From assembly GCF_052425735.1 (NCBI RefSeq), contig NC_135762.1:12834001-12898000 (forward strand): a DNA stretch of 64,000 nucleotides, written 5' to 3'. Below, one piece after another: positions 9,201 through 58,729 of this stretch. The translations under genes and the position numbers were made by a program. The notes under the pieces are model-generated. The model made no database searches. It was not told where the DNA came from and was given only the letters and a program-made list of their open reading frames with translations. This DNA is from Oculina patagonica (taxonomy: Eukaryota). Within the stretch, counting starts at the first letter, position 1; every line of letters starts with the position of its first letter.

Positions 9201-12200
9201 AGAATTGAATGCCATGTTGAATTTTTACCATGACCTCGGGGTGATAGTAAAGCATGGCCACACTGTTGTGCTGCAGGCTCAGTGGTTGATTGACCTTTTC
9301 AAACAACTCATAACCGTGCGACCTTTTGACGAAGTGGTAAGCAGAGATGGTGATTTACGTTATTACACCAGTGCTCCACATTACTTTGTGCGTGGTCGTA
9401 TAAACGTCGTTGCTAGTTTTGTGTTTACTTTTACCAGTGAAAGATGCAACACCACACAAACCATCATGTCTACGTCCAAACGTCCTAAAGGATTCCTGAG
9501 TTATCCCTAAACTCAGAAGATTTTGAAATCAGACTGGTGATTTGGAACCTAACCTAATTCCCAGCTTTTTGAATACACCATCAAGAATCTAACTAGAACT
9601 TCACATTTCCATAGTACGACAATTTTACTTGGCTCGTTCCCACCTTTTCCATGCCCCTTAACGACTTGATTACCACTCGGTGTTAGATGACTTGGTTTGT
9701 AAAAACCAAAAATGTGGATGTGCCACTGTTAATTCCTGTTTATTTATTGTATTTATTACCGTTTTATAGCAATATTTTTCCTCTTATATCTCAATTAAGA
9801 ATCCTCTGTACTCAGAATGCTGGCTGGAACTCGAGAAAAGTGGTATCCTCAGGATGACTCTCGTCGATCACGTTTTCGCAGATTACATCCAGAAAGGCCT
9901 TTCCAAGGAGGACGTTTTGGATATGATGGAGCTTTATGGGTTAATCGCCAAATTTTCCTTTGTACCAGCAGTTGGCGAGCAGGAACAAAGATACTTTGTA
10001 CCCGCCCAGCTTCGATCATCCCCTTCAGGTCTGTGTGAGATAACGCCCTCTAACAGCGATCCTTGCCCCCTGTATCTGCACTTCCTCGATGGATTTGTCC
10101 CTCATGGGCTATTTCCTCAGCTGCTGTCAAGAAGTATTCTCTGGTGTTCTGAACGCGGTCCCAAACAAGCTCCTAATCTGTACCACAATGGGGCAAGGCT
10201 TTTCATCGGAAAGCAGACCATTTACAATCTGATTCTTATCTGCAGAAAGAGATTCATCAAGATCATTTTGAAGGAAAGAAGACCTTCTTCAGCACCTCCA
10301 GTAACTGCATCATCGGAAATGGGACGTGACGTTCGCCTATTCTTGGAAGATACTTTGCTTGACTTGTCACAGGAGTTGTCCTGGCTATGCAATCTCCGAT
10401 ATGAATTGTGTGTTGCTTGCACCAGTTGTTTAAAGGAGGAGTGCATCAAGCACGGAGAAGTTTGCTGCGCTCACGATGACTGTCTACATCTTCTCCGAGT
10501 GCTTCCTGAAGAACAGCTGATTTGCCCGAAGAGCTTTAGCGATGATACAGTTGAAGTTCTTGGCTTGGAGAAATGGTTCCAGGGCCATAAAACGAAGGTA
10601 CTAATTCTTTCAAATTTTCTTTAACTTAAGTTGTAAACGATTATGTAAGGTGAAGGGTAAAGTCTGTGTTTGAACCTAGTGGTCCATCAGGTCAGAGCTT
10701 ATCGCGGTTTCCGTAGCATTAAAAGACTAGCAGTATTCTTAATCCTCTCTGGACGAGATACTAGTCCATCGCAGGGTTACCCCCCAGCATCACATTCGCC
10801 GGTACTCATTTATACAAGTCGGTGGAGAGAGGGCATTATGAGAGTAAGGTGTCTTACCCAAGGACACAACGATTATTTAGTTCAGTGCAGTTTAATCCTG
10901 AATTTCCCCCAGTATCGTTTGGTAGAGATGAGGTTTTTTTTTATTTCCATCAACAGTCTTGGTATCCTCAGTGGCTGGTCTTGCAAGACATGCTATACTT
11001 CAAATCTAAATATTTTACATCTTTGACCTAAACATTCAACAGCCGTCGTTTTAATAAGCTTTTTTTTTTTTACTTTCTCCTTTCTCAAAATAGATTAATG
11101 AAGAACAGAGAGTGGCTTTTTTGGCCCCTGAAGGTAAGAACAGCGGGTGCTCTATTTTAAACATATATTTCGGTTCTTCTCAATCCATGAGAGATAATCA
11201 AGGCGGTATCAAAACCAAGCAAATTTGGAGTAATTGCAAGGTCGTGCGCGATTGATCAATGTTGTCATCAAAACAAAGTTCTGTTTAGCTAAAGTAAGAA
11301 CTAACTAAGAAGAAGAATCAGCGAAAGAGGAATAGACAAATGGAAACAAATAACGGCTGCGAAGGAGTCTACAAAACCTCCTATTGCCAAATAATCGTTC
11401 GCAGGCTTCATGCTTGTATAGAACTACGTGAACATTAATTGTTAAGCTGACGGCTCTAAGAGATATTCTCCAACGAAAAATGATTGTTTTTATTCCGGTT
11501 CGCAGTTTGCGCAAGCATGAATTTTACTAACTTCAGGTGTATCTAATTTTTAAAGGGGCTATGTCTCGGGGATTTCGCAGATTTTCGGTCTAAACTGTTC
11601 CGAAATTAGTGGTAGGCATCTTAACCCATGAAGAACATCTTATTACGGAAGAAATAACCTTGATTTGTGAATATAATTCAAGCTACGGCCTTAATTATCG
11701 ATTTTTTGAAGACGCGTGGAAACAACTTGAAAAGTTAAGCCTTAATTTGCAATCTACTTCCATCCGTGCCATCCGCTGCCAAAGATGCTTATTAACACTC
11801 TCAGTGCTCTAATATAGCGATTTTTAATAAAAATGGTCTATTATCTTTAGGTTTCCTGCAAAATAAATATAAATTTTGCCTGTTTAAAAATCTGGTAAAA
11901 TCCGTGACAAAGCCCCTCTAAGGCATCCATGTCAAAACAGTATCTTCACTAAATAATGCTGAGCTAAAGGAATCTTTGCAAGCTTAAGGAATCTTTTATT
12001 GTTTTTGTTACAACTTTCATAGCTTTGGATCAAGCTTTATCATCCAAAACTGGCACTCCGTCAACAGATGATCTTCTCCTCCTTGCCTTTGAGCTGGGCA
12101 CCTCATGGAAGATGCTTGGTCGAACCCTGGCTCTTCCTGAGCCAGTTCTGGAGCAGATTGAAGTGGATAACTCTTACCTATCTGAGAGATGCTATGGTGT

Positions 12201-36200: not shown

Positions 36201-39200
36201 TGACCTGGCGCACAACATGCTTTAGCGACAATTTCGGAGAAAAGCCGCAATTTCGAACATTTTATGCTTTGTAATTCATAATTTGTGCTCTGCTCGTTGA
36301 TTTGCCATATTGCATTCTGCACTTCCCTTTGAGTCTCTGAGTTATTTAAGTTCACGTCGTCTTGGTTGAAATAAACATCACTTTTCCTCACTGGACACCG
36401 AGTCTCAAAGTTGTTGTGTACCAAATCCAATAACATCAGCTACTCTGCAAGATCGATTGGACACTGTTTACGACTTTCGTTTTAGGATTTCGGAATTCTG
36501 GGCGTCGGCAAGCAACTCAGACGATTAAAATTCAGTCCTTTTGAGTATTATCTGTCAAGAAAACGTTTTCAGTGAATTGCACTAATTATATGCCCTTTTG
36601 CTGTATTAGCACGGTAAGATTCTTTTCGGTATGCTTCGCGGTCATGGTTCGCAGGCGCATACGCTCTACGACGTAAGGTAAAGGTTAATGTAGGTTTACA
36701 TCTTGGATATTGGACATCCATACTATGGTCAAAACAAGAAATACGCTGACCAGTATCATATAGCCATATAGTCAATCTCATATAGTCACGGGCTCAGGTG
36801 TGAAACTCATCGAAGTTGCGTGTTTTTGAAGTTGACCGTTGACCAGGTAATGGTTTTCCATTGGATCGCTGGCTCAAGCCGATTCGCTCAAGTTCGTTTC
36901 GTTTAAGTCGGGCAACGTAAATAATCTGAGAGCTCCGCTTTTAGCCTTGGCTTAATCTATTTAATACTCTGTTGTCCTATTCCCATTAATGTACGGTACT
37001 TAATGTACAAGCAAAGGATCACGTCGATGAAATGACACAAGATTGGTCAATTTCTGATATACTTACTTGCAGGGATGACAAGAATGCCTGGTTTGGTGAA
37101 ACAGAAGACCGAAAAATTGGATTTTTCAAGAGCGAGCATGTAGAGGAACTACTGGACGAGAATATTGATGGTAGGTGCAGGGCAATAGAGTACCTTTTCT
37201 CTCGAGATGGTTAAAACTGCACTGTTAAGTTTTTACGACCAGGTAAATATCCTTAATTATTTTGGTTTTCAGATACAGCTATACCACCAGAGATTCGTGC
37301 ACGAGGCCCCAGAGCCGAACTTGCTTTTCAAAATGCCCTGCGGAATGGAAAAGTGAACGTGTACCGTGGTCGCATTATGTTTCTTGGGCAGGCCCGTGCA
37401 GGGAAAACGAGCCTGAAGAAATCACTTCTTGGCATCCCGTTCAACCCTGAAGAAGAGAGTACCGTAGGAGTCGAAGTTGACCCATCCAAGTGTGAAGTGG
37501 ATGTTGAACAAGTTAGCAACTGGCAGCGCACGAAACAAAGGAAGCTTGATGTCTCTGAGTTTGCTGACGACATAGCAAGGATAATCGCTAAAGACTTAAC
37601 AGAAACAAGTTTAGTCGAAAAAAGCATCGATGACGCTGATTCGAACTTGGAGCAGGTAATAAGTTAGCTTCTAATGCCACTTTTAAACTCCATGGAAACA
37701 GTTTTTAACCTCATTCAGACAGGTATTTTTATGGGGGGGGAAGGGCTTTTTCACAACCAGGGGGTCAGGCGATTTTTGCCCACCACATGTACGTACCTCT
37801 ATGGGTATTGAAGCTATGATGATAGGGGTGTATAGTATCTCCAAAACAAACTGGTCGGTTGACATGATGACGTTTTGATGTCGTCATGGCTTTTGAACAG
37901 CCGCCATCTTGGACGGCATGCAAATCTGATGTTCTTGACTTTTTGAAATTAGAAAACGACTTAAAGTAAGACAAATTTGGAGAACATGCCTGTTAAAACG
38001 TAATTTTTTTGATAATATCAAGTTCGGTTTAAAAGATAATGTCAAAAGTACACTTGTAAGGTCTTTTAATACAAAAAAAGGTTTACACTCCTTATAAAAG
38101 CGTGAACACTAAAAAATATGTCTGGAATGTTTGTGTTTAGCCAATCACATGCGAGAACTTCAGACCGCAGAAACCACAAACAGTAAATGGGTTTCCATCG
38201 GTCACGGAGCAACTTTAGTTCTTATTTTGTTTCAGGATACACGCTCTGTCTTTTTTAAGAATTTAAAGAACTGCTATTCTTTCGTATCGAGGGCCACATC
38301 CAGAACATGGTTTCAGGGATTTTTGAAAGAAAAAAAGGACGGTTTCTCTAGCGACGATATACGACATGGTTTAGTGCATGCAGTATGTTGTAGACATGTC
38401 TAGACATAAGATGTAAACGCGATAAACCGAATATAAAATACAAAATTGTGGAGTTTTCGTTACTGATTGTAAATCTTTTCGGTAGAACAAGGGATTCGAT
38501 TTATTTCGGCAAACGATTTCAACCCTTAGGCAATTAGAGGTTCCGTGATCGTAAGACTGCAAACTGCAAAGGCTCCAACGAAAATTATTCAAAATGTTGG
38601 CGTGATTGGTGCAAAATAAACACCTCAATCGCTCAATCGTTTGATTTTCGCTTTTCCTTCCCGCTATCGTTTCGCTGTTATCGAAAAAACAAACCTTCCT
38701 TCTATCAGTGTTTAGGTCTGCTACAATAGTTGGGGTGAGATAAAAACCGGAAAATGCAAGCTTATCTCAGTACAAATTGTAACATGCCATCAGGCGAACG
38801 GTAACTGCAGATACGAATTCGTTACAATTTTTGAAAATTGGCGGCAACTGGGGCAAATCGTAGCGTCGGGCGCATCGGTTTTTCAATTTTTTCTATAAAA
38901 AAATCACTCAAACCTATTCTTCAGTGGAGCAGTGAATGTTCTCAAAAAGGAAGGAATTACAATTAGTGTGTTTACTTGTAAATTGGAGCGAAACGAGAAC
39001 CAAATATTGTTCCGTGACCGATGGAAACCCATGTGGTTTCTGCGGTCTGAAGTTCTCGCATGTGATTGGTTAAAAGACAAAGAACATTCCAGACATATTT
39101 TAAGTGTTCACGGTTTAATAAGAAGCGGTGTAAATGAGCAACACGTTCTGTAACAGTTTTGCTTATTGTCTCTTTTACTTCCTATATTTCCAATTAGGGG

Positions 39201-42200
39201 AACAGGGATGAGGTGGATGCTGGCGGTCCGAAGGAATTAGAGATTTCACTGGACATAGCCAAGCCAATACAAGAAACAAAACAGGAGAATGAGGCATCAG
39301 TTGGAGACCCTACCGCCACTGCGCTAGTAAGAAGCGAACCAGCAGAGCTAGATATTCAACTGGGTATTGATACCACTGCAGTTTTGCCGAATGACGTCAC
39401 AGATTTGGTTGTGCAATACTTGCAAGATCTGAAGTTGGAGGACAACATAAGAACAAAGGAAGCAATTTTAACTCTGTGGGATTTTGCCGGGCAGCACCTT
39501 TATTATGCATCCCATTCTGTTTTCCTCTCCCCACGAGCTATCTACGCCTTGGTGTATAACCTTAGCAGAGATCTGAATGCTCCAGCAGAACCTTGTGTCA
39601 GACAGGGCATTCACGACATTGTTCTGGAAAATCCAAACAGTGAGACCAATTTAGAGAGTTTGTTGACCTGGTTGGCCTCTGTTCACAGTATTCGGCCAAT
39701 AACGGATGAGGCTGCTAGTCATCAGGAAGGGAAACTAGCTTACCTCCGTCCTCCAGTGTTTATTGTAGGTACTAATGCAGATAAACCTTTTGAAGATATC
39801 AAGAAAATGGAAAAGTGCATTCAGAAGAGTATTACGGGAAAGGCGTACGAGAAGCATGTAATTAGGCCATTCTTTGCTGTTGATAACACAAGATCGTTTA
39901 GTGACGATGGGGTTCAAGCACTTCAGAAAAGGGTCATGGAGGTGTTGAAACAGGAGCCGTACATGGGTGAAGAGGTGCCAATAAGGTACTTTGCTTTAGA
40001 TTCCAATTCCAGGTGTCAAATAGTAACAAGAACGTCAGTTGAATAAGTCGATAAAAAAATTAAATGCTTAAGAAAAACCATTGCCAACTTGTGTCTGTTT
40101 GCGTTTCAACAACTTTCTCGTTAACTCCCTGTAGTCCTTGAACTGTCTAACTGAAAAACAGAAGTCGTCAAAATGACCTGACCCTTGATTGACTTGCTAC
40201 CTAGAATGCAAAGATGTGAAAGTGATTTGTTATTATAACATGTACAATTATTCAGCTCAAAAGTCTTTTCAAAAGGGCAAGCAGCAAACGAGTGTATTTT
40301 TTTGTTTGTTTTCCTTAGGTGGTTTACCTTCGAAAAAGTCGTCGAGGCTTTAGTAGCAAAGGAAACCTATCACATGGATCTTGATCAGCTCCTAGCTGTC
40401 ACAAGACGAGTCTGCCGCATAGACGACGGGGAAGAATTAACAGCCATGTTGAATTTTTATCATGATCTCGGAGTGATCGTAAAGCATGGCCATACTGTTG
40501 TGCTGCAGGCTCAATTGTTGATTGACCTTTTCAAACAACTCATTACTGTGCGACCCTTTGATGAGGTGGTAAGCAGAGATTTCCCTATGAACTCTATATT
40601 ACTTCTGGGCTCGGAAGAACTTGCCATATGATTACTCATAAAGTTCAGTGTCATTTTGGCCAGGCCTAAATCCCAGCTTTTTTATAGACCATCGGGAATC
40701 TTAAAACGAAATTTTCATACAGCAACATTTTCACCTTTCTCCTTCCATTCTCTCCTATTTAATTTCATTTGTCCAAAACGGGACGTCACTCTACATAAAA
40801 GCAACATTGCCTATCTTTAAGCACAGTGTAGGCTCTAGTTTACTCAAATGTGCACTAAATTCTTACGAAAATGCCTCTGAAAGACTTGATTCCCACTCGG
40901 TTACAAGGCGGAGGTATACTTGAAGGCCGTTTATCCACCGCTTAATATCGAATATCTCGTTCGCCTTTCAAGCAATCCAAACGAATCTACAGTGTATTTT
41001 TTTTTGCGGTGTTTTGAATATTTTTGGCGATATTTGGGAGGAAACAGTTTTTCTCAAAGGACTAGTAAAATATAGAGAAATAAGAAATATTCAAGATTAT
41101 ATGTGATTTGAAAATTAGAATTTGAAGTTAAAAATTAGTTAGTGGACACCCAACCAGTCCCCTGACAACCTGGAGCGCTCTTGGTGGTGTTCTTTATTGT
41201 ATCCCTTTTTCAAAACCTCTTAAAATTTCATTCAAATTCACTTTTACCCCCGCCTCAAGTGAGGTGGCCCATGAAAACAAAAAACTCACTCTACGGTACT
41301 TTTCTTGTCATATCTTTATTCAGAATCCTCTGTACTCAGAATGCTGGCTGGAACTCGAAGAAAGTGGTATTCTCAGGATGACTCTTGTCGATCACGTTTT
41401 CGCAGATTTCATTCAGAAAGGTCTTTCTAAGGAGGACGTTTTGGATACGATGGAGCTCTATGGGTTAATCGCCAAATTTTCCTTTGTTCCCGCGGTTGGC
41501 GAGCAGGAACAAAGATATTTTGTGCCTGCCCAGCTTCGATCATCCCCTTCAGGTCTGTGCGAGATAAAGCCCTCTAACAGCGATCCATGCCCACTGTATC
41601 TCCATTTCCTCGATGGATTTGTCCCTCATGGACTATTTCCTCAGCTGCTGTCAAGAAGTATACGCTGGTGTTCTGAACGCGGTCCCAAACAAGCTCCTAA
41701 TTTATACCAAAATGGGGCAAGGCTTTTCATTGGCAAGCAGACCATTTACAATCTGATTCTTATCTGCAGAAAGAGATTCATCAAGATCATTTTGAAGCAA
41801 AGACGTCCTTCTTCAGCACCTCCATTAACTGCATCAGTGGAAATGGCACGCGACGTTCGCCTCTTTCTGGAAGATACCCTACAAGACTTGTCACACGAGT
41901 TGTCCTGGTTACGTAACCTCCGGTATGAACTGTGTGTTGCTTGCACCAGTTGTTTAAAGGAAAGTAAAGAGTGCATCAAGCACAGAGAAGTCTGCTGTGC
42001 TCACGATGACTGTCTACATCTTCTCCGTGTGCTTCCTGAAGAACAGCTGATATGCCCGAAGAGCTTTAGCGATGATACAGTTGAAGTTCGTGGATTGGAG
42101 AAATGGTTCCAGGGCCATAAAACGGAGGTACTAATTCTTTCAAATTTTCTTTAACTTAAGTTGTAAATCATTATGTAAGGTGAAGGGTAAAGTCTGTGTT

Positions 42201-47077: not shown

Positions 47078-47901
47078 TTAACAAATACATCACTGGAACC
47101 AGGGCGCTAAAGGAACCATTTAAAACTTGATTCTGCATTTGTAGGCACCTTTCTGTTTATAACGATGGTTTTGAAACCCTTCTGTCACCTTTTAGACCTT
47201 CAAGAGTCGACCAGAGGAAACAACATGCATGATTTTTAACATTGATTTCGGTTGGGCATTTGCTTGCTATTTTAATTTGTTTCCTTTTTCCCTGTGAGGA
47301 ATAACAGGAAATTACAGGAGAAAGACATACACACGCGTACGTGCCTGGGCGCGTACGCCTTGCATCTCACGTACAGAGTGTTGTGGTTTTGTTCACATAC
47401 ACTGTTTCTTGTTTTGGTACTATGAAGTAATAGATGCTTAATACCTGAACTGAACAACATAGTCGTAAATTAAGTCGTAGGCCATTATTTTCCCACCTGA
47501 GTCTCGTTTATATCTTGTTAGATTCGCTTATCATGTGAACATGGAAATTCGTTTCCTTTTTCATGATAGGTAAAACAATTTTCATGATCTTGCGTGAATA
47601 ATAGATCTTAAACGCAGCTATCCGTTAGAAATCGATAAAATCATGAAAATCGATTATGTGAGGAAGCTCTGATCGTGGATACTAGTAAAACGAAGTTCGG
47701 ATCACTTTGGTCGGTCTTCAAGCAAATGAACATGTTAACCTGTTTGTTCTATTCTGATAAATATCATTATAAAATATGGATTTACAGTGTTCGGCACCGA
47801 TTCTGAGACTAACACTTCGTTAATGCAGTTCAGCATTTATACGATTTTTGCGATGTTTGGTTCCTTTGCCTCTTCAATTTTCGCGGAGTTGGAATTAAGT
47901 T

Positions 47902-48118
47902 AGTAGTAATAAAATAAGAGTTCAGGTTCAGGGATCAGGGGATACAGTGACGTCACAATACCCCCAGGGATTACGTCATCAAAATGATCTAAAAATAGAA
48001 GAAAGACCTCATTGAGGGGGAGGGGGGCGTAGGGGAGTAAATGACGTCATGGTGTTATTTTTAGTCATGGGGAGGTAGATTAAATAATTGATACAGTGAT
48101 GTAATGATTTTATTTTTA
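47902..48118 (+). repeat. Left terminal inverted repeat of the Polinton
   Basis: Reverse complement of 57458-57673 with about 2 substitutions and a 1-nt indel. Confidence 0.95.
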
Positions 48119-48184
48119 ACCACAGCAATCTATGAATTTTTCATTATAAAAGTGGTGATAAACTTGTTTCGCTGTCCAGAAATC

Positions 48185-48637
48185 ATGTCAAACCAAAGTG
48201 AAACTTTGCTTGTGGATGAAATCTGTCTTAGAGCTCATCTCATGAGAAATAAAATAGCGGACATCATACAGGACATTTTTGCGAGGCAGATGAATCATCT
48301 TGTTTATGAAGAGGCTAGAAAATGCTGTGAAGGATGTGAGTTAGACGATCCGAGTCAGCTACATCACGATTGCTTGATGGTTGAAGAAGAGGAAAATTGG
48401 ATCAGATACTACGACCTAGCGAAAGAGCATTTAAATATAGATAAACTATGGACTGCAATTGAAAAAGAGACATTGTCAAAACTAGATTTGTATTTGGAAT
48501 ACTCGTGGTTTAAGTATTTACTTAATCTTTTAAAAGTGGATGAAACGTCTGCCTTTTTGCTGTACAAAGATGCTCAACGGAGAGAATATGAGAGTGGAGA
48601 CGACTGCCTGACACTGGGATGCTATGATTATATGTAA
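48185..48637 (+). CDS. Polinton accessory protein with a CxxC...PSQxxHxC putative metal-binding motif
   Basis: The ORF track starts at 48104, inside the TIR; the likelier ATG is 48185 (MSNQ). It contains CCEGCELDDPSQLHHDCL. An AATAAA follows at ~48725. Confidence 0.65.
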   Translation: MSNQSETLLVDEICLRAHLMRNKIADIIQDIFARQMNHLVYEEARKCCEGCELDDPSQLHHDCLMVEEEENWIRYYDLAKEHLNIDKLWTAIEKETLSKLDLYLEYSWFKYLLNLLKVDETSAFLLYKDAQRREYESGDDCLTLGCYDYM

Positions 48638-49084
48638 TTACTTGAGTTCTACTTACAAAGACATGTACAAGTTTAAGTTATCTCTACCATTATAGTTCAC
48701 TTTTGAGGCAAATTGATTGTTTTCAATAAATAAACCTTATGATATGATGTCTTTTCTTTATTCTACAGATTTACTTCATAAACTGCCAAAAAGCTTTTTG
48801 ATCTTTTGTGGTATAATAACACCCATGGGACCAGTACCCCTCTTTGTTTTGAAGGAGATGCAAATGCCATAAAATGTCCACACGAGTTGCCATTTAAATG
48901 TTTATTTTAATTAAGAAAGTTTTTCAGAGGAAATAAACCGAAGAAAATTACTCAATTTCTTACTTTAATGCACTTGTATTAATATAATAGAGTTGCAGTA
49001 ACATTCCTTCAAACAAAGATTGTAATAACAGACTAAGACGTAGACGGTACGTGTCATAAAACAACAAATATTTATGCATGGACA

Positions 49085-49459
49085 TTACAGAGAAAGCCAC
49101 CGTGGACGTTGAGGTGTTGTTATTTTAGACCGTTTGCTAATCTTCTCTGTTTTTCGAATGTCTTTACTTTTGTTTTTCAATAAATCCCTTGATTTTCTTG
49201 GTGTGGATAACTGGTAGTTAATGCCAGTGTCTTGCTGTTGGGTAGAAGGAGGCATGAAACACGCTTTAAATTTTTGGTTGTTCTCAGTGTTTTGATAGAT
49301 GATTACTTTAACTTTTGGTTGTAATTTTGCTTCTTGTAGCCACTTTCTTCTTTGATTGTGATCCAGCTGATGAACATTAGTAAGATGGTTAGATAATTTC
49401 ACGAGATATTTTGCTCCACATCCTGGGACCGGACAGTCTCGGCAAACTCTTCTAACCAT
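49085..49459 (-). CDS. Small C2H2-type zinc-finger protein with a basic tail
   Basis: CPVPGC-x10-HLTNVH pattern and a Lys/Arg-rich C-terminus. Confidence 0.7.
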   Translation of the reverse strand: MVRRVCRDCPVPGCGAKYLVKLSNHLTNVHQLDHNQRRKWLQEAKLQPKVKVIIYQNTENNQKFKACFMPPSTQQQDTGINYQLSTPRKSRDLLKNKSKDIRKTEKISKRSKITTPQRPRWLSL

Positions 49460-50833
49460 GTTAACGGCATGGAATATTGACGCAAATGACAGAATTTTGT
49501 TAATATCCTTAACTAATATAGACGCTACTGAAGGACAGAAAGGTCAAAATAAGAACAAAAAGGACAAAATAAGGGCAGAAAGGACATAACAAGGACAAAT
49601 AGGGCAAAGGAGACATGCGGGGCATTTTAGCTCTGTGTTTCTCTGCGAACGCGTCTCGCGCGGAGAGAGCGCGCGCGTGTAACATATCTTTTCCCTAAAA
49701 ACATTCTACAAAAGTTCACTTGCTAATGTTAGTGTAATCCATTTTCGAGTATATACACTGAGTTTCAAAATAAATACATGAGGCATGAGCACATATTAGT
49801 TTATGGAGTTTATGCATAATTATGAAACACGATAATGCAGACAGTTTACTGTTGTTATCTTAAAATGAGATCACCGCTAAAAATAGAAATTGACTTTATG
49901 AAGATAAGGTACAGGTGCTTGTTAACATGAGATAAGTTCTAAGTTTAGTTATGATGTAATCTAGCATGTATAAAAGCGCTTCACGCTAGAAACTCTAGCT
50001 ATGTGAAGCAAGCAATAAAGAACTCAGGAAAGAAAACAAAAGCGTGTACTTAACATTCAAAATAAGCGGATGACGATTGGCGTGAGTCCGGCGTGAGTGT
50101 CGAGTGGGCCAACATATGAAAGCTACATGAGGTAAGATCATCATTTTCATACCAATCCACTGTTTCAGTTAACGAATATAGAAAGTTCAGTGAACTCATT
50201 AAGGATCTTAATGGGATTTGAATAGTTTTACTCGATTGGCTAACCAATAACCCTGGGAAAAATTACTGTAAAAGCGTTCTTTGTTTCCAAACAAAGCTTA
50301 TTTCATATCGGTCTGTTTGTAAATGAAAAATTTGAATATTACTTCGCTTAATACTTTTGCTCGCATACTCGGTGTGAAAAAATTATCTTGATATTTTGAG
50401 ATGAGTTTGAGAGAAAGAAAAAGTTTTTTGGTTTGTAAAAAATCTCTCTCTGGAAAGTTTCTTTTATTTTTTTTTCAAGGTAACAATTTGAAGTAATAAA
50501 AACGACTTCTAGAAGAAAAAAAAATCGTGATATTTTTACTAAGATAAAGTTTTTAAGTTAAAAACTTTATATTTTTTGACTCGAAGAAAAAGATCATCTC
50601 AAAATAACTCTCTCCAAAAAATTGATCTTTCTTTTTGTCTAAAGGTGGATTTTAACTTTAAAAAAACTTAGAGAGAGAAAAATGTTTATGATTTTTTTTT
50701 AGCTGGAGATAAAAATGTTAAAACAAAACCGGTGGAAAAAATTATTTATTTGTTTTTTTTCCTTAGATTGGAAATTAAACTATAAATATCCGAACTCCAT
50801 TGAAGTGATTGCAGTTTTCACGGAATTTCAAAC

Positions 50834-51475
50834 GTGATGGACCTCTCTTTCAAAACACCCTGCAATATACTTATAGCGGGCGCTTCTTGCTCGGGTAAAA
50901 CTTTCTTTACAAGACGCCTGCTTCAACATGCAGAGGAAATGTTTGATGAACCATTTCATCGAATTATCTATTCCTATGGTGAATTTCAACCACTGTTCAT
51001 AGAAATGAAACAAGAAAGAGAAAATATACAATTTGTGGAAGGATTCCCTGAAGATATCTACAGTTTATTCGAGAATAAGAAAGGGTTATTAGTTCTCGAT
51101 GATCAGATGTCTGCATTGGCGAATGAACCTCGTATGGTCGATCTAATAACGAAAGGCTGTCATCACAGGGATATTACAACGATATTTATTGTGCAAAATT
51201 TATTCCCTCCTGGAAAACATGCCAGAACAATATCTCTCAATGCTCATTACATAGTCGTGTTTAAAAACCCTAGAGATTCGTTAGGAATCAGCACTTTGGC
51301 GAGACAGGCATTTCCAAATGCGACTAACTATGTCATGGAGAGTTTCAAAGATGCTGTTGAGAAACCGTATTCTTACTTTTTGATAGATTTACATGCGCTC
51401 ACAGCAGAGAACTGTCGCTTGAGGACAATGATTTTCCCCGGGGAACAGCAAATTGCATATGTGAAACGCATATAA
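50834..51475 (+). CDS. A32/FtsK-like DNA packaging ATPase
   Basis: Walker A GASCSGKT, Walker B LLVLDD, and HHRDITTIFIVQNLF / RTISLNAHY typical of Polinton ATPases. A TATAAATA lies upstream at 50781. Confidence 0.93.
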   Translation: MMDLSFKTPCNILIAGASCSGKTFFTRRLLQHAEEMFDEPFHRIIYSYGEFQPLFIEMKQERENIQFVEGFPEDIYSLFENKKGLLVLDDQMSALANEPRMVDLITKGCHHRDITTIFIVQNLFPPGKHARTISLNAHYIVVFKNPRDSLGISTLARQAFPNATNYVMESFKDAVEKPYSYFLIDLHALTAENCRLRTMIFPGEQQIAYVKRI

Positions 51476-51513
51476 GTTTTGTAAACAAACGTTCCTAGTT
51501 AGTTTACTTCACC

Positions 51514-51843
51514 ATGTCGAAGCGTTTAGAGGATAATTTACATTTCCTTCACGTGTTGGCGAAATGTAATAACAAACAACGTCGAGCGTTGATAGAGCAT
51601 GGGGACAACGAATTGGTCAAATGTATTTGTGAAGTGGCACTTAATGTGTTAAAAGGAGAGGTTGAACTAAATGAATTAGAACTGAAACGTCTTCGACGAT
51701 TTAGAGTGCTACTGCGGGAATTGGCTGACAAGAAAACGCCTTTGAAGCGAAAGAAAGAGTATTTAACTCAGCGCGGCGGTAACCTGTTATCATATCTTCT
51801 CCCACCGGCACTGAGTACACTAGCTGCTCTGTTTACAGAATGA
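51514..51843 (+). CDS. Conserved small Polinton virion/core protein
   Basis: CICEVALNVLKG motif and C-terminal QRGG followed by a hydrophobic helix (LLSYLLPPALSTLAALF). It sits directly after the ATPase. Confidence 0.75.
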   Translation: MSKRLEDNLHFLHVLAKCNNKQRRALIEHGDNELVKCICEVALNVLKGEVELNELELKRLRRFRVLLRELADKKTPLKRKKEYLTQRGGNLLSYLLPPALSTLAALFTE

Positions 51844-52655
51844 AACACGCTCGCAAGATGTTATTAGTTCCTGAGGAATTTGTAAAGGCGTTGGAGTTAC
51901 GTAATCAACTACAAACAACACCTCATGTGAATAGTTTAACACAATTACGCGAACAAATGGATGGTGTTTTAGCTGATGAAAAACTACCAGCGGAAATTAA
52001 AACACAGCAGTATGATCAAATGCTTCAGCGCTACTTGAATCTTCAATCTCAGAAAGAAAATGTCGTTCCCACAGTGCGCATTCAGCCATCTGAAGAAGGG
52101 AAGGAAACTTCAAGTTCTAATGAAGTGTTAAATGAATCGGTTCGGGACAATACAACTCCCGCGGGGAAAGAACGAATCACTGAAGCCGATATTTTACAAA
52201 CTGTTCCGAAAACATACAAATCTCAAGCGCAGGGTTTGCTGACTTGGCTCAAACGAAACCCCGAAGAGCTTAGCTGGGATCATAAAGGACAAGTCAGTAT
52301 CGGTGGCAGTCCGATAGCAGGTTCCAGTATCGCTGATTTAGTAAACGACTCGCTTCGCTCGCGTAAGGGATTTAAACCTCTCGGTAGAGAAGCGTTTACC
52401 AAAACGCTAGCAAAAATAAACACTCCCGAGGGTTTTGTCAGAAATGATGACTTGAGAAAACAGATGAATCGTTATAAAATAGAGAAACTGCCTGCTTTGA
52501 CACCACCAGCAGCTCCGGCTTCGAAGGGTGTTAGTCCCTTATTTCCAACACCACCGTCTTCAGCAAAACCGAGAGGAAATATTCCCACCCCGAGACGGAT
52601 GAAAAGAGTCCCCCCAACTGCTAAAAGAGATATAAACTGGATTTCATATGACTGA
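51840..52655 (+). CDS. Conserved Polinton protein of unknown function (271 aa)
   Basis: MKHARKMLLVP start, WDHKGQV..I.GSSIADL core and a terminal W. It overlaps the previous stop (ATGA). Confidence 0.75.
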   Translation: MKHARKMLLVPEEFVKALELRNQLQTTPHVNSLTQLREQMDGVLADEKLPAEIKTQQYDQMLQRYLNLQSQKENVVPTVRIQPSEEGKETSSSNEVLNESVRDNTTPAGKERITEADILQTVPKTYKSQAQGLLTWLKRNPEELSWDHKGQVSIGGSPIAGSSIADLVNDSLRSRKGFKPLGREAFTKTLAKINTPEGFVRNDDLRKQMNRYKIEKLPALTPPAAPASKGVSPLFPTPPSSAKPRGNIPTPRRMKRVPPTAKRDINWISYD

Positions 52656-52699
52656 ACTCACTTTGAAAGCACTGTTTTTATTTTTGTATTAGAGAGTGT

Positions 52700-52770
52700 T
52701 CATACTTTAAATAAAAAAAGATTTAATGCGACACTGAGTGGTTTTCTGTTTGCAATAACATTTATTATTC
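52700..52770. terminator. Convergent polyadenylation region of the two viral gene blocks
   Basis: AATAAA on + at ~52710 and TTTATT (AATAAA on -) at 52761, between convergent stops at 52655 and 52790. Confidence 0.55.
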
Positions 52771-52789
52771 AATCAAAACACTCCCACGC

Positions 52790-53248
52790 TTACGGAAAGA
52801 AGCGTGCCACAAACTTATACACACTCTCATCATTTAATTGTCTATTGTTTGAAAACACTTTCACAATATTGTTCATGCTGACACCTCGCGATCGGTGCAT
52901 CAAATAAAATATACAATACTCTCCGCATACATTAGTGAAGGTACTTTGCAATACATGTGAGTTAAAGGTCCATTCTGAAACCGTATGCTGCAGAAAAGTC
53001 TCAAAGTTCCTACTATAAAAACTAGGTTGATTGCCATAGCTGTCAAAAAATTCGCCACTGTTCGGAGTTGTTAAATAAAAAGCAATCCAGTGTTGTCCAG
53101 GCTTGAAATTCGGGTCAGTATTAGCGATGATTCCGCATGGAAACTTCTCAATTTTTCGCGGTAGTTCATTAGCTGCAAACACACCAGTAAACTTTCCAGC
53201 GGTTATTCTATCAGTGGCGATCACTTCACCTATCATTCTTGTGTTCAT
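52790..53248 (-). CDS. Adenain-like cysteine (maturation) protease
   Basis: Catalytic triad motifs GQHW, FFDSYG and Q....VCGEYC. Confidence 0.92.
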   Translation of the reverse strand: MNTRMIGEVIATDRITAGKFTGVFAANELPRKIEKFPCGIIANTDPNFKPGQHWIAFYLTTPNSGEFFDSYGNQPSFYSRNFETFLQHTVSEWTFNSHVLQSTFTNVCGEYCIFYLMHRSRGVSMNNIVKVFSNNRQLNDESVYKFVARFFP

Positions 53249-53259
53249 ACTCGTTGAAG

Positions 53260-54593
53260 TTAACTTGAAAAGTCGTAAATGACGTGGCGACCTTGATCAG
53301 GCTCTATAAGCGATTCAAACTCACCGTAGACAATCAGGTTTACAGCTGAAGGTAGCCCACGACTGAACTGCATTTCAAGTGTGAGGTTACCTTTATTTCT
53401 TTCGTTAAAGTGATCCGAGGCTGAACAGGCATCGGGGGTTAAATCCAGACAAATAACTCCATATCCTTGATAATAATCATCTCTCGAAATATCATTGCCG
53501 CTATCGTGGTTCAAAATTCCAGTTCCGGTGAACAGCGTGTTATACGCCTCAATGAAATTTCGACCACCCGCAGATGTTAATTTTAAATTAATCGGTTTCA
53601 GTGGTCTTTGCTCACCATCTATTGTGACACTCACTGAGGTCATGTTATAAAGCTGGAAATTGTAAGGGTTTTTTTATAATCTCCGTTGAAAGTTTCACTT
53701 TCCACCAGCCCTAAGACAATCCTCTTCGGAACATTACCATTAAACAAATCACTCTTGTTTATGGAGGGGTTACTCGAGGGGATTGTGAAAGCCTTACACT
53801 CTACCCTCCTAATGGGGTATTTTGCTGTATTTCCACTTTGAAGCTCCTTCGTGTGAGAAAGTTTTATAACGGGACTAATTTTCACTGTTCTTACTTTTAA
53901 CACTGCACTTTGCATCACAATCTTGTAATCCGCAGCCGCTTCACCAGACATAATGCAGAAATTGCTTCGGTTCGGTGAAAGCTTTATGCTGACATCGACT
54001 TGATTTAGAAGCAGTCGATCACTAAAGAAAATATCACAGAACAGAGGGCCTGAGAGATCTACTAACATGCTTTCCTTTGTGAAACTGTAGCGTTTTTTCA
54101 GGCCTTCATTTCCACCTTCAGCCACTGTGGGATCAAGGCTGTTCATTTGACCAGCGGTATCCTTGTAAAAGAGCCCTGCGGTGAGTTGAGATGATTTTGC
54201 CGCTGGACCAAAATTGAGAAGCGTCTCCAAGTAACTTCGATAAGCGTAAGTCCCTGTTGATTGCGTTACTTGTATACCATTTAAAAAAACATCCACTTGT
54301 TTAAAGAGACTTTGCAGGAAATTGTTCACCGGTGCGGTCTTCTCTCCACTTCCAAGATCTGTCCCATTACGTTTTGTGATTTTTACCTTCATCACTAGCA
54401 TTGTCTTTGAAAGATCGAGGTAATCATCTGTTCCCGCGATTTTGAACTCTATGGGGGCGCTGCTGTTTAAACTAGAGATTGGTTGATGATCAATCCACAT
54501 CCCTTTTTTTATTGCAACCTGCGTTGCAGGAGTGGTGAAGAGATCTAACTCACTCTTTGTACAAGGAGTCGATTCAGCATGTACAAAGGCCAT
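53260..54593 (-). CDS. Major capsid protein (double jelly-roll), split by a 1-nt deletion in an A7 run
   Basis: The 317-aa and 127-aa ORFs join into 444 aa if one T is added at 53669-53675 (restores DYKKNPYNFQ). It has the CTKSELDLF N-terminus and DLTPD...GNL.LE..F C-terminal motifs of Polinton MCPs. Confidence 0.9.
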
Positions 54594-54595
54594 AC

Positions 54596-55009
54596 TTAAG
54601 AAAATATATCTTGCACTGTTCTTGATCCTTTCGCTTTCTTTGCTCCACGTTTAATGACCTTCTGCTGTGGTGCTTTCCTTTTTATAGTTTTTCTCCCGGT
54701 CGAGTGTTGTCGCATTCCTCTTCCATTTTGATTCATTGTTTTACGTGCACCTCCCAACCCTTTAATAGTTTGATTCACTCGAGTGTTTAAAGATTCTTGG
54801 AGATTATTACCCGAGGCGATATCTTTTGCAATATCTGCTCCTGTATTAAGCAGTGCCTTTCCCACTGTTTTTGCTCCTTTTTTTAAAAGTGGTATGGCAG
54901 ATCTCGCTAGAGACTTGAAAAAAGACCCTAGTCCATAACCTCTTTGGAATGAGCTTCCGCGAAATACTGGTAAGTCACCTCCGTATTGTTTGTTCATTGT
55001 CCTTCTCAT
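54596..55009 (-). CDS. Basic core/membrane-active virion protein precursor
   Basis: QYGG and QRGYGLGSFFKSLARSAIP amphipathic segment, with an Arg/Lys-rich C-terminus. It lies between penton and MCP. Confidence 0.8.
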   Translation of the reverse strand: MRRTMNKQYGGDLPVFRGSSFQRGYGLGSFFKSLARSAIPLLKKGAKTVGKALLNTGADIAKDIASGNNLQESLNTRVNQTIKGLGGARKTMNQNGRGMRQHSTGRKTIKRKAPQQKVIKRGAKKAKGSRTVQDIFS

Positions 55010-55011
55010 GT

Positions 55012-55788
55012 TTAGCTGAAGTATGGTGATTGACGGAGTCTAAAACTCAATGTGATCACAACTCGTCCACGTTCAAATGATATTTTTCTTCCCACGTCAT
55101 CTCTTATAAGCAGTTCTATCGTCTCAAATTCTTTTGTACCAACCGGAAGATATTGAGGGTTGTCAAAGTTTTTATTGATAATACTCCCATTGTTACCCTC
55201 GGCGGGGACTATACGTAGCAAGGGTGCTCTCACGTCACCAACAATTTGACTATCTACTATATTGGAGTAAATGTATATTGATTGTATCCCATCACTTACA
55301 TCCGAGATGTAGGGGGCCGTTGTAGTTTCCGTTAAGGTAATCTCGCCTCCGAAACCCAGCATCAAACCTAAATTCTCCCCCAAGTGGAGCTTACTTCCAT
55401 TCTCCAAGGTTACAGTGACCCTCTCCGACATGGCATCAAATGAAAGTTGTATGTACACATTTTCTCGTTTTTGACCATTGATTTCTTTCATGATAGCATT
55501 AATCACACTTGGTATGGTGTGATAGTATCCGTCAGGAGGAAGACCCACCAACCAATCGCCCTCATTGGCATCATAGTACATAAAGTTGCTCTTTCCAGAT
55601 TGAATGTTGAACCAGGTGTGTGGAAAGGTGATACTCGCGAGTCCAACCTCCCAATCCCCTTGTAGTATTATAGTCTCTGGAAGTTTAACTCGATACTCAG
55701 TGAGAGTATTATCCGGGTAAATCGACATTGAACTATTGCTGGGGAGGGTCATATAAAACTGCTTTTGCTTAGCCATTGCTCGCATCAA
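55012..55788 (-). CDS. Minor capsid protein (penton, single jelly-roll)
   Basis: FYMTLPSNSS...N...YRVKLP...WEVGL and YIYSNIV...VGDVRAPLLRIV motifs. Confidence 0.9.
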   Translation of the reverse strand: MMRAMAKQKQFYMTLPSNSSMSIYPDNTLTEYRVKLPETIILQGDWEVGLASITFPHTWFNIQSGKSNFMYYDANEGDWLVGLPPDGYYHTIPSVINAIMKEINGQKRENVYIQLSFDAMSERVTVTLENGSKLHLGENLGLMLGFGGEITLTETTTAPYISDVSDGIQSIYIYSNIVDSQIVGDVRAPLLRIVPAEGNNGSIINKNFDNPQYLPVGTKEFETIELLIRDDVGRKISFERGRVVITLSFRLRQSPYFS

Positions 55789-55825
55789 CAGAGTGAATGA
55801 TACAAAAGTTGTTTTTCATATGCTT

Positions 55826-56911
55826 TTATACTTTATTTAAATCCTTACTAGACACGTAGCTATTGTATTTCTCAGGGTATCCAACCCATTTAACAAGATA
55901 TTCAACATGTTTTCCTCGCTTACGTTTACCTAAAATTTTTTCTATTTTATACAAATCATCTGCCTTTTTCACTACTCTTACTAACTCTTTTTCATAAAAC
56001 GTTCCCTCTAGTTCTTCTCCATCAAACTCTTTCAATTTGTAAACAGGAGGGTTTCTCGGTAGTCGTTCTGATATTGTAAAAATCTCAGTGGTCCACGAAG
56101 GAAGGTACCCTTTCTCAAAAGTTCGCTTTGCTTTTGAAATTCGCACTTGTTCTCCAACCTTAAACTTGAAGACTACTTTGGAGGGTTTTTCATCATACAA
56201 AGTATGCCACACCTTACTTTCATTAGCTTTACTTACAAGTACTGGTTTTGTCTTAATACTGCGATGAAAAGAATTATTATAGCTCTGCAAAAGTTTCGGT
56301 AGAACGTCTACATATTTTAATGTATTTTTCCACGTAAAATATTTCCACATTTTTGTTTTCAGCGTTCTGTTATATCTTTCAATAATACTTCCCTTGGTCT
56401 GTGCATTGAACGTTGTAAAGAAAGAAATATTGTTATCCTTTAAAAACTTTTGAAATAACCTATTAGTAAATTCTTTACCCTGATCTGTGTGAAGTTTTAA
56501 AGGTTTTCGCCCTGATTTAAATATCTCCTTAACCGCTTCAACAATCGAGTTTCCTGTTTTGTCTTTCAGAGGTTGTGCCCATGCGAACTTTGAAAAACAG
56601 TCAATAGCTGTTAAAATGTACTTGAAATTGTTATTATATTTCTTAATAGATTGGAGGTCGACCAGATCCATTTCCCATATTTGATCTATTCCTCCCACCA
56701 TAACTCTATTTCGCTTGAAGCGCTTCCGGGCAGGTTTGTGTAGAGTATACACATCCTGGGTGCTCAACCACTCCTGCACTTGTCTTCGTGTTATCTTTGG
56801 TTTTATCTTCTTTGCGTTGCGAAACAATTTCTCTGCACTTCCAAGACTCTCTCCCTCACTGATGTTGTAGTACAACTTTGTCAGTAGTTTGTTGATTTCC
56901 TCCCTCTCCAT
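55826..56911 (-). CDS. Retroviral-type (DDE) integrase with a C-terminal chromodomain
   Basis: WEMDLVD, DCFSK, TDQGKEF and IERYNRTLK. Chromodomain YKIEKIL...YLVKWVGYPEKYNSYV. Uninterrupted 361 aa. Confidence 0.95.
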   Translation of the reverse strand: MEREEINKLLTKLYYNISEGESLGSAEKLFRNAKKIKPKITRRQVQEWLSTQDVYTLHKPARKRFKRNRVMVGGIDQIWEMDLVDLQSIKKYNNNFKYILTAIDCFSKFAWAQPLKDKTGNSIVEAVKEIFKSGRKPLKLHTDQGKEFTNRLFQKFLKDNNISFFTTFNAQTKGSIIERYNRTLKTKMWKYFTWKNTLKYVDVLPKLLQSYNNSFHRSIKTKPVLVSKANESKVWHTLYDEKPSKVVFKFKVGEQVRISKAKRTFEKGYLPSWTTEIFTISERLPRNPPVYKLKEFDGEELEGTFYEKELVRVVKKADDLYKIEKILGKRKRGKHVEYLVKWVGYPEKYNSYVSSKDLNKV

Positions 56912-57102
56912 CCAACTCTGAGTTCTGTATTATAACCTTTCCCCCACAACAAGCTAATACACAGCGAACTTTTCGAAGTAGGTTTTTAAGGGAAAATGAA
57001 GGTGTGGACCCACAGCAGCTCATCTCTTCACTTGGTCATGTAATCGCTATTATGATTAATTCCAGCACAAATCAACTCCATTTTATAAAACTCTGTCTCT
57101 CC

Positions 57103-57417
57103 CTATGAGGTCATATCTATAAATAAACATGCAATCAGAGTCCACAAACTCGGTAGTGCTAGGGGATGTTTGCTTTCTATGAAGGCGAGTAGCATGTTCC
57201 ATTGCTGTCTTTGTAAATTGAAACATTCTGCATAGCGAATGAAAACAAATAAACGCCCCCAGTTCATAACACCATCCGTGATCATTTGCTCATAGACATC
57301 AAAGAGCACCACCAGGGGTTTCTTCACATTAATCGTTTGTTGAAAAAAATGTGGTTGTTGTTTAGCAACCATTCGAAGTATTAACAGATAAAACATTTTC
57401 CGGCGAAATTCTCTCAT
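57103..57417 (-). CDS. Putative viral Bcl-2-like protein (104 aa)
   Basis: EQMITDGVMNWGRLFVF matches the Bcl-2 BH1 signature (ELFxDGxNWGRIVxF). Hydrophobic C-terminal tail. No clear BH2. Confidence 0.6.
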   Translation of the reverse strand: MREFRRKMFYLLILRMVAKQQPHFFQQTINVKKPLVVLFDVYEQMITDGVMNWGRLFVFIRYAECFNLQRQQWNMLLAFIESKHPLALPSLWTLIACLFIDMTS

Positions 57418-57457
57418 GACTTATTTTTATTTACTTTTAATCAAATGACTTTGTTAC

Positions 57458-57673
57458 TAAAAATAAAATCATTACATCACTGTATCAATTATTTAATCTA
57501 CCTCCCCATGACTAAAAATAACACCATTACGTCATTTACTCCCCTACGCCCCCTCCCCCTCAATGAGGTCATTCTTCTATTTTTAGATCATTTTGATGAC
57601 GTAATCCCTGGGGGTATTGTGACGTCACTGTATCCCCTGATCCCTGAACCTGAACTCTTATTTTATTACTACT
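57458..57673 (-). repeat. Right terminal inverted repeat of the Polinton
   Basis: Reverse complement of 47902-48118. Confidence 0.95.
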
Positions 57674-58729
57674 TAAGTTCCTGCGAACATAAGTGTAAGA
57701 TGTATTCAACAATGTGTTGGTGTTTGATTTGGTACATTGAAAAGAATTCATTGCATCCAACACAAAGCAGAAACTGGTAGAGACTTGTCAATAAAGGTAG
57801 ACGTTTAATGCAATTCAAGTATACATGTAAGAGAAAATTGAGGTTCGATGTGCCAGTCTCGTCCCCATAGCCCTTTCGTTTCTCTTAGCCGTCTGGGCCT
57901 TGGCACGAGAAATCGAAGGGCTCTGGAGAGACAGGATTTTCAGTCCTAGATTCTAGGACTTCCGGTCTTCATGTATGCCGTCACGATGTTTCAAAAGGAT
58001 GTATGAGAGAGTCGTTACGCTTTTGACTTCCATTTAGGAATTCTTTGTTCCAAACAGCCAATCAAAATAAATTCGAATTTAGCCCTTCGTTTTATCGTGC
58101 CAAGGCCTAGTCTGCTAAGACAAAAAGGAAAGGGCTATGGGGACGAGAGTGATGTGCAAGTTGGGCAACCTCGTTCCAGGGCTTTCTCGTCAGTGGTTAA
58201 AGCTTAAAGACACTGGGACGAGATTGCGCACTTTGCTCATCGTGGCACCAGATCCTTCTTTGGGTTGATCTATGAAATTAGGGACTGACCATTATTTTTT
58301 TGGAGGGGGGGGGGGGGGAATGAAAAATATTGAAAAAATTGTTTGCAGGGCCTAAAAAGACCAAATAAATTGTCTGCAAACACGATATGTATAACAAAAA
58401 ATAGTTAGAATTTCGAAAAAAAATGTTTGCAGAGGTACATAAACTAAAAAAAAAAGTTTGCAGAGGAAAATTTTTCATCCCCCCTCCCCCCTCCCCCTCC
58501 AAGAAAATAATGGTCCGTCCCTTAGCAGAGATTTTGGTTGCAGGTCCCTGCCTAAACATTCGCTTTGTTTTCCTCATTGGCTTTAGTTTGAACTAAAGTT
58601 GTTGATGTAAATAATATTTTGTGGTAATTAATAGAGGATGCCTACCATCTGTAGGAAAATCCGGTTAGTGTGACCGAATATACCGACCAACGGGATGAGA
58701 TTGCGCTTACAATTAAACTATCAGGCCTT

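Follow-up and report, generated by a model that had tools for sequence, protein, structure and literature searches.

A capsid-complete Polinton family without a polymerase and a polymerase-only family in the genome of Oculina patagonica

Introduction

The Polintons or Mavericks of animals (polintoviruses, adintoviruses) carry a DNA polymerase B that is protein-primed (pPolB), the N-terminal domain of which is the terminal protein (PMC11071308). Most coral polintoviruses have PolB and an integrase, as found in a survey with a minimum length of 10 kb (PMC11131425). Here, we describe E, a Polinton-type element of 9,772 bp at positions 47902-57673 of a 64,000-nucleotide stretch of the Oculina patagonica genome (hereafter the window; assembly GCF_052425735.1, contig NC_135762.1, positions 12,834,001 to 12,898,000). 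Like animal Polintons, E has AGT-repeat ends, terminal inverted repeats (TIRs), a 6-bp target-site duplication (TSD), an integrase with rve domain and chromodomain, virion genes under selection, and the gene order ATPase-PM-PZ-protease-MCP-PW-penton-integrase (MCP, major capsid protein) given in the legend of PMC8097293. Unlike them, it lacks pPolB and terminal protein, measures 9.8 kb, is multi-copy in this form, and is accompanied by a polymerase-only family, here called P. The polymerase-only family beside the polymerase-less one was found in the course of this analysis. From sequence comparison, we propose that E is probably copied in trans by the terminal protein and pPolB of a helper, with its own virion module building the particles and its own integrase inserting it.

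Non-autonomous Polintons were reportedly described by Kapitonov and Jurka in 2006. Capsid-less Polintons have also been described (PMC4028283). E resembles both in its presumed dependence on trans functions, and P resembles the capsid-less type; however, in the losses described, the morphogenesis module is gone or hardly any genes are left, whereas E keeps a virion module under selection, and P, unlike capsid-less Polintons, has no integrase either. Polinton-like viruses (PLVs) mostly come without an rve integrase and encode replication proteins of other kinds, and Tlr1 has a pPolB-helicase fusion (PMC11071308). E shares with PLVs and Tlr1 a double-jelly-roll (DJR) virion module without a canonical pPolB, but it differs from them in that it has an rve integrase, shows no replication protein that could be recognised, and nests among pPolB-bearing animal Polintons. 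Bidnaviruses, which are bipartite or multipartite and have a polinton-derived pPolB, also distribute polymerase and other functions over separate TIR-bounded molecules; they are single-stranded DNA viruses whose capsids are of parvovirus type and whose segment termini match (PMC8502044), whereas E and P are integrating double-stranded DNA (dsDNA) elements with only partly matching ends.

Genomes with virion genes but without PolB and integrase have been noted (PMC11071296), and pPolB with TIRs but without integrase was found at ten nematode loci and read there as remnants (PMC11414722). Neither a segmented Polinton nor an animal Polinton family with complete capsid genes and an integrase but no polymerase turned up in a literature search that did not extend to subscription papers, Repbase, and supplements, where such cases may lie. 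Polymerase together with integrase defines a Polinton, and Polinton surveys co-localise these two genes, 4-40 kb apart (PMC8097293) or within 20 kb (PMC11414722); thus, with two co-localised genes or a 10-kb minimum as criterion, elements like E and P were likely missed.

Results

Gene content of element E

The ends, TSD, morphogenesis module, and integrase that the original prediction had read from the letters were borne out by TIR and TSD alignment, Pfam, motifs, and structure models. All Polinton/Maverick features were found (integrase with rve domain and chromodomain, DJR MCP, single-jelly-roll penton, ATPase, protease, AGT-repeat TIRs, and 6-bp TSD) but for pPolB. The features are as follows, with lengths in amino acids (aa), identities in aa or nucleotides (nt), and window positions.

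47896..47901 (+): left TSD, 6 bp, TAAGTT, perfect match to the right TSD
47902..48118 (+): left TIR, 217 bp, AGTAGT end, internal motif in common with the P family and other satellites
48104..48637 (+): orf177, Cys/His-rich protein with no assigned role; in the full-length sister family, homologues (27-33% aa) stand at the integrase end
48908..49694 (-): cassette containing orf124, 83-88% nt to the P family and small satellites
49085..49459 (-): orf124, small protein; C2H2-like zinc-finger motif read from sequence
49697..50617 (no strand): non-coding spacer, found in E only; without pPolB remnant or clear resemblance to P or the sister family
50618..50835 (+): promoter-like block with a TATA-like box near 50781; its end lies two bases ahead of the ATPase start
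50837..51475 (+): A32/FtsK-like packaging ATPase, 212 aa; Pox_A32 Pfam E-value 0.003 (below cut-off) and catalytic motifs
51514..51843 (+): orf109, likely core protein with a QRGG protease-type site; named PM after its place in the gene order
51840..52655 (+): orf271, named PZ after its place in the gene order
52790..53248 (-): adenain-like cysteine protease, 152 aa; Peptidase_C5 Pfam E-value 0.006 (below cut-off), His/Asp/Cys motifs present
53260..54593 (-): DJR MCP gene, in two frames in the window copy
54596..55009 (-): orf137, basic, likely core protein with three protease-type sites; named PW after its place in the gene order
55012..55785 (-): penton, single jelly roll, 257 aa; model pLDDT 75, mavirus penton match at E-value 2e-11
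55826..56911 (-): rve integrase with C-terminal chromodomain, 361 aa; Pfam rve E-value 2.9e-17, chromodomain 1.3e-9, D-D-E motifs
57103..57417 (-): orf104, short Bcl-2-like open reading frame (ORF), NWGR motif, PDB matches to the Bcl-2 family; weak support
57458..57673 (-): right TIR, pairing with the left TIR
57674..57679 (+): right TSD, TAAGTT, same as the left TSD

The two TIRs (47902-48118 and 57458-57673) are 98.6% identical over 217 aligned bases and both start with AGTAGT. The virion genes run in the order ATPase, orf109, orf271, protease, MCP, orf137, penton, integrase, which equals that of vertebrate Mavericks in the legend of PMC8097293, and the names PM, PZ, and PW were therefore inferred by position; the ATPase and protease calls combine sub-threshold Pfam matches with motifs and synteny. 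The element has 12 ORFs of 104-361 aa, and the ORF list agrees with the earlier statement that none exceeds 361 aa, or 444 aa for a repaired MCP. In the window, the MCP frame is broken around 53,640-53,670 into ORFs of 317 and 127 codons, as it is in the copy on C6, and the single 444-aa ORF is intact in the copies on C9 and C1318. A model of P0001, a natural, continuous MCP homologue, had a low pLDDT (53.5) and matched the MCPs of PBCV-1, iridovirus, and mavirus in Foldseek (E-value ~1e-11).

A Pfam scan recognised no helicase, primase, or other replication gene among the 12 ORFs, orf177 and orf124 being without assignment, and Atlas searches returned no named family for either of the two. 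The original prediction did not include orf104, for which all 60 listed PDB matches belong to the Bcl-2 family (E-values 0.012-0.12); its variants among E copies (3 synonymous vs 9 non-synonymous) give no sign of selection.

Absence of a polymerase

The observation that E holds no pPolB remnant, made in the original prediction by inspection, withstood two kinds of search. A profile built from 82 pPolBs (Beta-like; class names after PMC8502044) was run over six frames, with stops as X, against the entire window and C9 copies, the main arm of the C1318 copy, and 5.5 kb at the left of the C6 copy, and detected no pPolB remnant there (best domain E-value 0.8). Two control pPolBs were recovered at E-values <= 6e-229. 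An Alpha-class control was absent among the 18 matches returned, so that the exclusion of Alpha-type remnants falls to tblastn. In tblastn, seven pPolB queries found no pPolB in E (best E-value 0.06; 0.38 for the Alpha query). A pPolB hidden in the spacer is ruled out by these searches. When the spacer was compared with the post-polymerase region of P, the top score reached z 3.6, in one of eight comparisons.

Four insertions and selection on the virion genes

A search of the genome, with all 40 candidates scored and 71 matches (as in all our genome searches, only top candidates were scored), recovered four near-complete E loci at 97-98% identity with four distinct TSDs:

Window 47902-57673: TSD TAAGTT; MCP split
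C9:21000822-21010575: TSD AATAAA, TIRs identical; orf271 and penton broken
C6:34197863-34216293: TSD GGCACC; interrupted by three insertions, MCP split
C1318:13446-25603: TSD TTAAAG; snap-back form within another Polinton, truncated

The left arm without polymerase is common to all four. Repeated insertions of this kind had been named in advance as the mark of a satellite-like lineage, as opposed to a unique deletion, and four were found, all polymerase-free and each with a different TSD; together with a skew towards synonymous variants and the lack of a close pPolB-bearing parent among scored candidates, they favour that proposal. A one-off internal deletion as the origin of E is ruled out by four insertions with one polymerase-free structure. 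E thus shows the feature of a non-autonomous Polinton, an essential enzyme missing yet four insertions with four TSDs.

Distinct variants in eight segments of the virion module comprised 57 synonymous and 44 non-synonymous changes (omega ~0.26, p 3e-11, neutral synonymous share 0.25). Capsid, penton, ATPase, and protease accounted for 36 vs 29 (p 1e-7), and the integrase showed 8 vs 9 (p 0.03). The virion genes of E are under purifying selection, and the synonymous skew implies that most divergence arose under selection before insertion. Variants extend through the left arm as well.

Panhandle-type strand-displacement replication is established for adenoviruses and predicts concerted change of both ends. 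The TIRs of E differ by 0-4 substitutions within a copy and by 7-13 between copies in five of six pairs, with one substitution between the window and C9 copies, so that both ends change together. The small distance within TIR pairs also supports recent integration, as the original prediction held. An older E-type remnant lies at G000:C4:37939209-37940138 (TIR 88%, orf177 49% aa).

These data bear on the question of whether E needs a viral polymerase at all. An intact integrase and perfect TSDs are enough for transposition and any helper is putative, so that E might move by integrase-driven cut-and-paste or host copying, its virion genes being passengers or serving another role. We regard this as highly improbable, considering that selection on capsid, penton, ATPase, and protease, the concerted TIRs, and the snap-back copy point to extrachromosomal strand-displacement copying, and that the 12 ORFs include no recognised replication gene.

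Relatives of E and polymerase loss in a sister family

In the genome, identity to the E MCP falls from 98% to <=57% (71 of 71 candidates scored) and to the E integrase from 98% to 60% (113 of 1218), and no closer pPolB-bearing parent was present among the scored candidates. The nearest family comprises six loci with 52-57% MCP identity and the capsid gene order of E. Five of them, 14-17 kb long, have a pPolB, complete or disrupted, that lies upstream of orf124 and the ATPase. At the sixth (G000:C2:45598992-45614530) and at C4:53468839-53476818, which have the same termini, only the last 26-28 pPolB codons are left; the C2 locus retains the capsid module and 26 pPolB codons, and capsid module plus integrase are kept in one of the pair. 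The sister family thus shows a second, independent polymerase loss. Among other capsid-bearing loci checked for such a loss, five of six have pPolB, and the sixth is an MCP fragment.

In P, and likewise in the full-length sister family, the gene orf124 follows directly 3' of pPolB, and in E it is inverted; orf177 stands at the integrase end in five of six sister loci and at the opposite end in E. This end switch, together with the integrase-end layout of E seen in a metagenome locus (L075, below), leads us to infer that the polymerase arm was replaced in a copy-back event, which may lie far back in time.

A tree of 115 MCP sequences (E, five genomic relatives, and 109 of 118 database matches of 400-480 aa) placed E among animal Polintons and outside the sister family; its clade (FastTree support 0.93) has 18 members, including sea-anemone and metagenome proteins. 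Database proteins labelled Oculina patagonica are 98-99% identical to the E MCP and the P pPolB; among the 120 listed MCP homologues, none is a parent of E, the best non-self match reaching 71%. The pPolB of three sister loci (L021, L028, L023) has a probable intron near motif B and an insertion that we take to be Vsr-like from its motif, and is missed by Pfam PF03175. The long ORFs of this family were considered as a non-pPolB replicase and rejected, as they align to pPolB motifs though Pfam misses them.

E in other sequencing runs

The internal 6.2 kb of E is present in 20 of 24 listed runs, with at least half of its words in 16; these runs come from ten studies with five organism labels plus coral metagenome. 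Detailed coverage was examined in four of the 24. In three, with three organism labels, contigs cover 30 of 30 bins of E. One contig leads from the spacer (49705) through the ATPase to the MCP (54051), contigs in two runs span the orf177-orf124 junction (48607-49111), and no single contig in the three runs covers the whole of E. As the host flank is likewise covered, the runs point to related hosts and are no proof of horizontal transfer. In all three runs, positions 49640 and 50835 are also joined on opposite strands, which is the arrangement of P and some satellites. The listed holders of E include no RNA entry, and viral-contig scans with four queries found nothing.

A metagenome scan gave 23 loci, 22 of them <8.1 kb and too short for both ends. 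L075 (71% nt to E) has the integrase-end layout of E and is a decayed copy-back form of 6 kb; it lacks both ATPase and pPolB, whatever its parent may have had. In L065 (46% MCP), the pPolB end adjoins the ATPase.

It is conceivable that E is a defective-interfering genome, a copy-back or deletion form of an extant monopartite Polinton absent from the assembly, its copies having integrated from a population maintained by the parent. The genome is rich in copy-back derivatives (the C1318 copy, L008-L011, C4:53.47M, C2:45.6M), only top assembly candidates were scored, and part of the variation could predate the loss. We nevertheless consider this unlikely: E has no pPolB remnant, short TIRs, a rearranged left arm, and variants running through that arm; the same layout recurs in the three other runs; and no parent was seen among the scored genome candidates or the 120 listed MCP homologues.

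The polymerase-only family P

Matches to E 48908-49694 led to the P family, which has two insertions of 10.8-11.7 kb and TIRs of 1.9-2.4 kb:

G000:C14:13278909-13290566: 11,658 bp, TIRs of 2,356 bp at 99.6%; no matching TSD
G000:C235:118874-129695, duplicate of C14:14.35M: 10,822 bp; perfect TSD CCTAAT

The pPolB of P is of Beta class, has an exon of 965 aa and likely one intron, and contains N-terminal zinc fingers, vOTU Cys/His residues, and exonuclease and palm motifs. With a ratio of non-synonymous to synonymous polymorphism (pN/pS) of 0.29 between the two insertions, it is under selection. The neighbouring orf124 is broken in the second insertion. P contains no trace of an MCP or integrase, and an ATPase query gave only one 47-residue match (E-value 0.02); P must have borrowed an integrase. 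The next pPolB in the genome is 60% identical (78 of 676 candidates scored), a nine-member cluster in other assemblies is 86% identical, and in a tree of 82 pPolBs the sister group of P consists of two Actinostola proteins and P0138.

E and P have three things in common: the orf124 cassette, 83-86% identical in nt; the block that in E lies upstream of the ATPase and in P stands before orf124; and a TIR motif. Their TIR similarity has a z of ~10 (0 of 200 shuffles), whereas six of seven full-length Polintons score z <= 0.3, the exception being the C5:24.1M family. The original prediction had asked for a pPolB-bearing element with the terminal 20 bp of E; none has exactly these bases, and the closest is the capsid-less P family. 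A 16-base TIR motif occurs 41 times (control 2); all of these loci were retrieved, and outside E and P they are mostly small satellites or fragments. Many full-length Polintons in the genome share the same six terminal bases, and each of them might serve as a helper.

E and P might be two dedicated segments of a bipartite polintovirus, dependent on one another instead of on other Polintons, and replicated, packaged, and spread together. Their core gene sets are complementary without overlap; their lengths are alike (9.8 vs 10.8-11.7 kb), P reaching its size through its long TIRs; cassette, promoter-like block, and TIR motif are common to both; each is under selection; their insertion ages overlap by TIR identity (99-100%); and the sister groups of the E MCP and the P pPolB are congruent, both containing Actinostola proteins and one JGI protein (P0017 and P0138, respectively). 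However, the termini of E and P are not identical, unlike those of bidnavirus segments (PMC8502044), cassette and motif also occur on many satellites with other termini, and the nine-member P-like cluster has no comparably close full-length MCP among the 120 listed, a point tempered by degraded MCP copies at ~80% in metagenome contigs. Since these parts also occur in the many other Polintons and satellites that crowd the genome, we give this reading only tentative credence. A match of P-type pPolB and sister-family MCP to contigs of the same length, 418,895 nt (P0070/P0122), held for one of nine cluster members and was discarded as chance or nesting.

Other satellites and the window flanks

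Seven satellites of 4.7-5.8 kb (L008-L013, L121) have AGTAGT ends, several being palindromic with 6-bp TSDs. The orf124 cassette is present in six of them, and four have, in addition, an HNH-like ORF with termini like those of the full-length C5:24.1M family. L119, L126, L127, and L128 form a multi-copy satellite family of 5-8.6 kb with perfect TSDs, an ATPase, and ORFs of 108 and 275 aa, without a match to MCP, integrase, or pPolB; ATPase matches were also found in L091, L097, L098, and L104. At L060 (G000:C1:45.72M), the orf124 N-terminal domain forms a tandem array in a 357-codon frame. Within the window, the flanks of E at 6727-10621 and 39198-42151 contain long open frames with similar repeats (7766-8575, 39198-40043), probably paralogous host-gene exons, and short inverted-repeat elements lie at 57854-58151 and 58280-58522.

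Discussion

E lacks the pPolB that defines a canonical Polinton and, judging from its sequence, would work like a helper-dependent polintovirus. Since the terminal protein forms part of the pPolB chain, a helper would have to provide E with both. Replication by a helper in trans is suggested by the homogenised TIRs and by selection. The helper would prime at the AGTAGT ends and copy E by strand displacement via a TIR panhandle. E would supply capsid, ATPase, protease, and integrase, package and re-integrate itself, and may also package and integrate P and smaller satellites. The P family is the leading, though unproven, candidate for the helper.

Several observations weigh against helper-dependent propagation of E with P as its partner. 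Replication, particles, and trans-activity are predicted from sequence. All four E copies carry a lesion, and one of the two P insertions lacks a matching TSD. Expression is represented by one polyA run with 16 reads over 10 kb, mostly on the multi-copy orf124 cassette. Matches to pPolB are plentiful (160 listed from 76 of 716 candidates scored), which keeps any helper putative; the full-length C5:24.1M family also has the TIR motifs (z 5.6); the orf124 cassette of P is nearer to palindromic satellites (91-92%) than to E (86%); and the termini of E and P differ, with only AGTAGT and the internal motif in common.

E and P are perhaps halves of one ancestor. P0017 and P0138 each have a longest contig of 10,735 nt, which is an indirect hint of a monopartite ancestor in which both modules were joined. 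An ancestral monopartite Polinton with a Beta-class pPolB may have lost its polymerase arm by template switching, and in E a copy of the integrase-end terminus with orf177 would have taken the place of that arm. It is a possible, if rather doubtful, extension of this idea that a cnidarian polintovirus has split into two integrating segments, E and P, that are co-replicated and co-packaged, which would make it a bipartite dsDNA virus of the DJR lineage.

Selection on capsid genes in an element unable to copy itself provides independent evidence on a long-open question, namely for particle formation by animal Polintons and for their complementation in trans. If E and P were a dedicated pair, they would show a stage at which a monopartite dsDNA virus becomes segmented, and a bipartite virus would have been hidden from surveys that need polymerase and integrase on one molecule.

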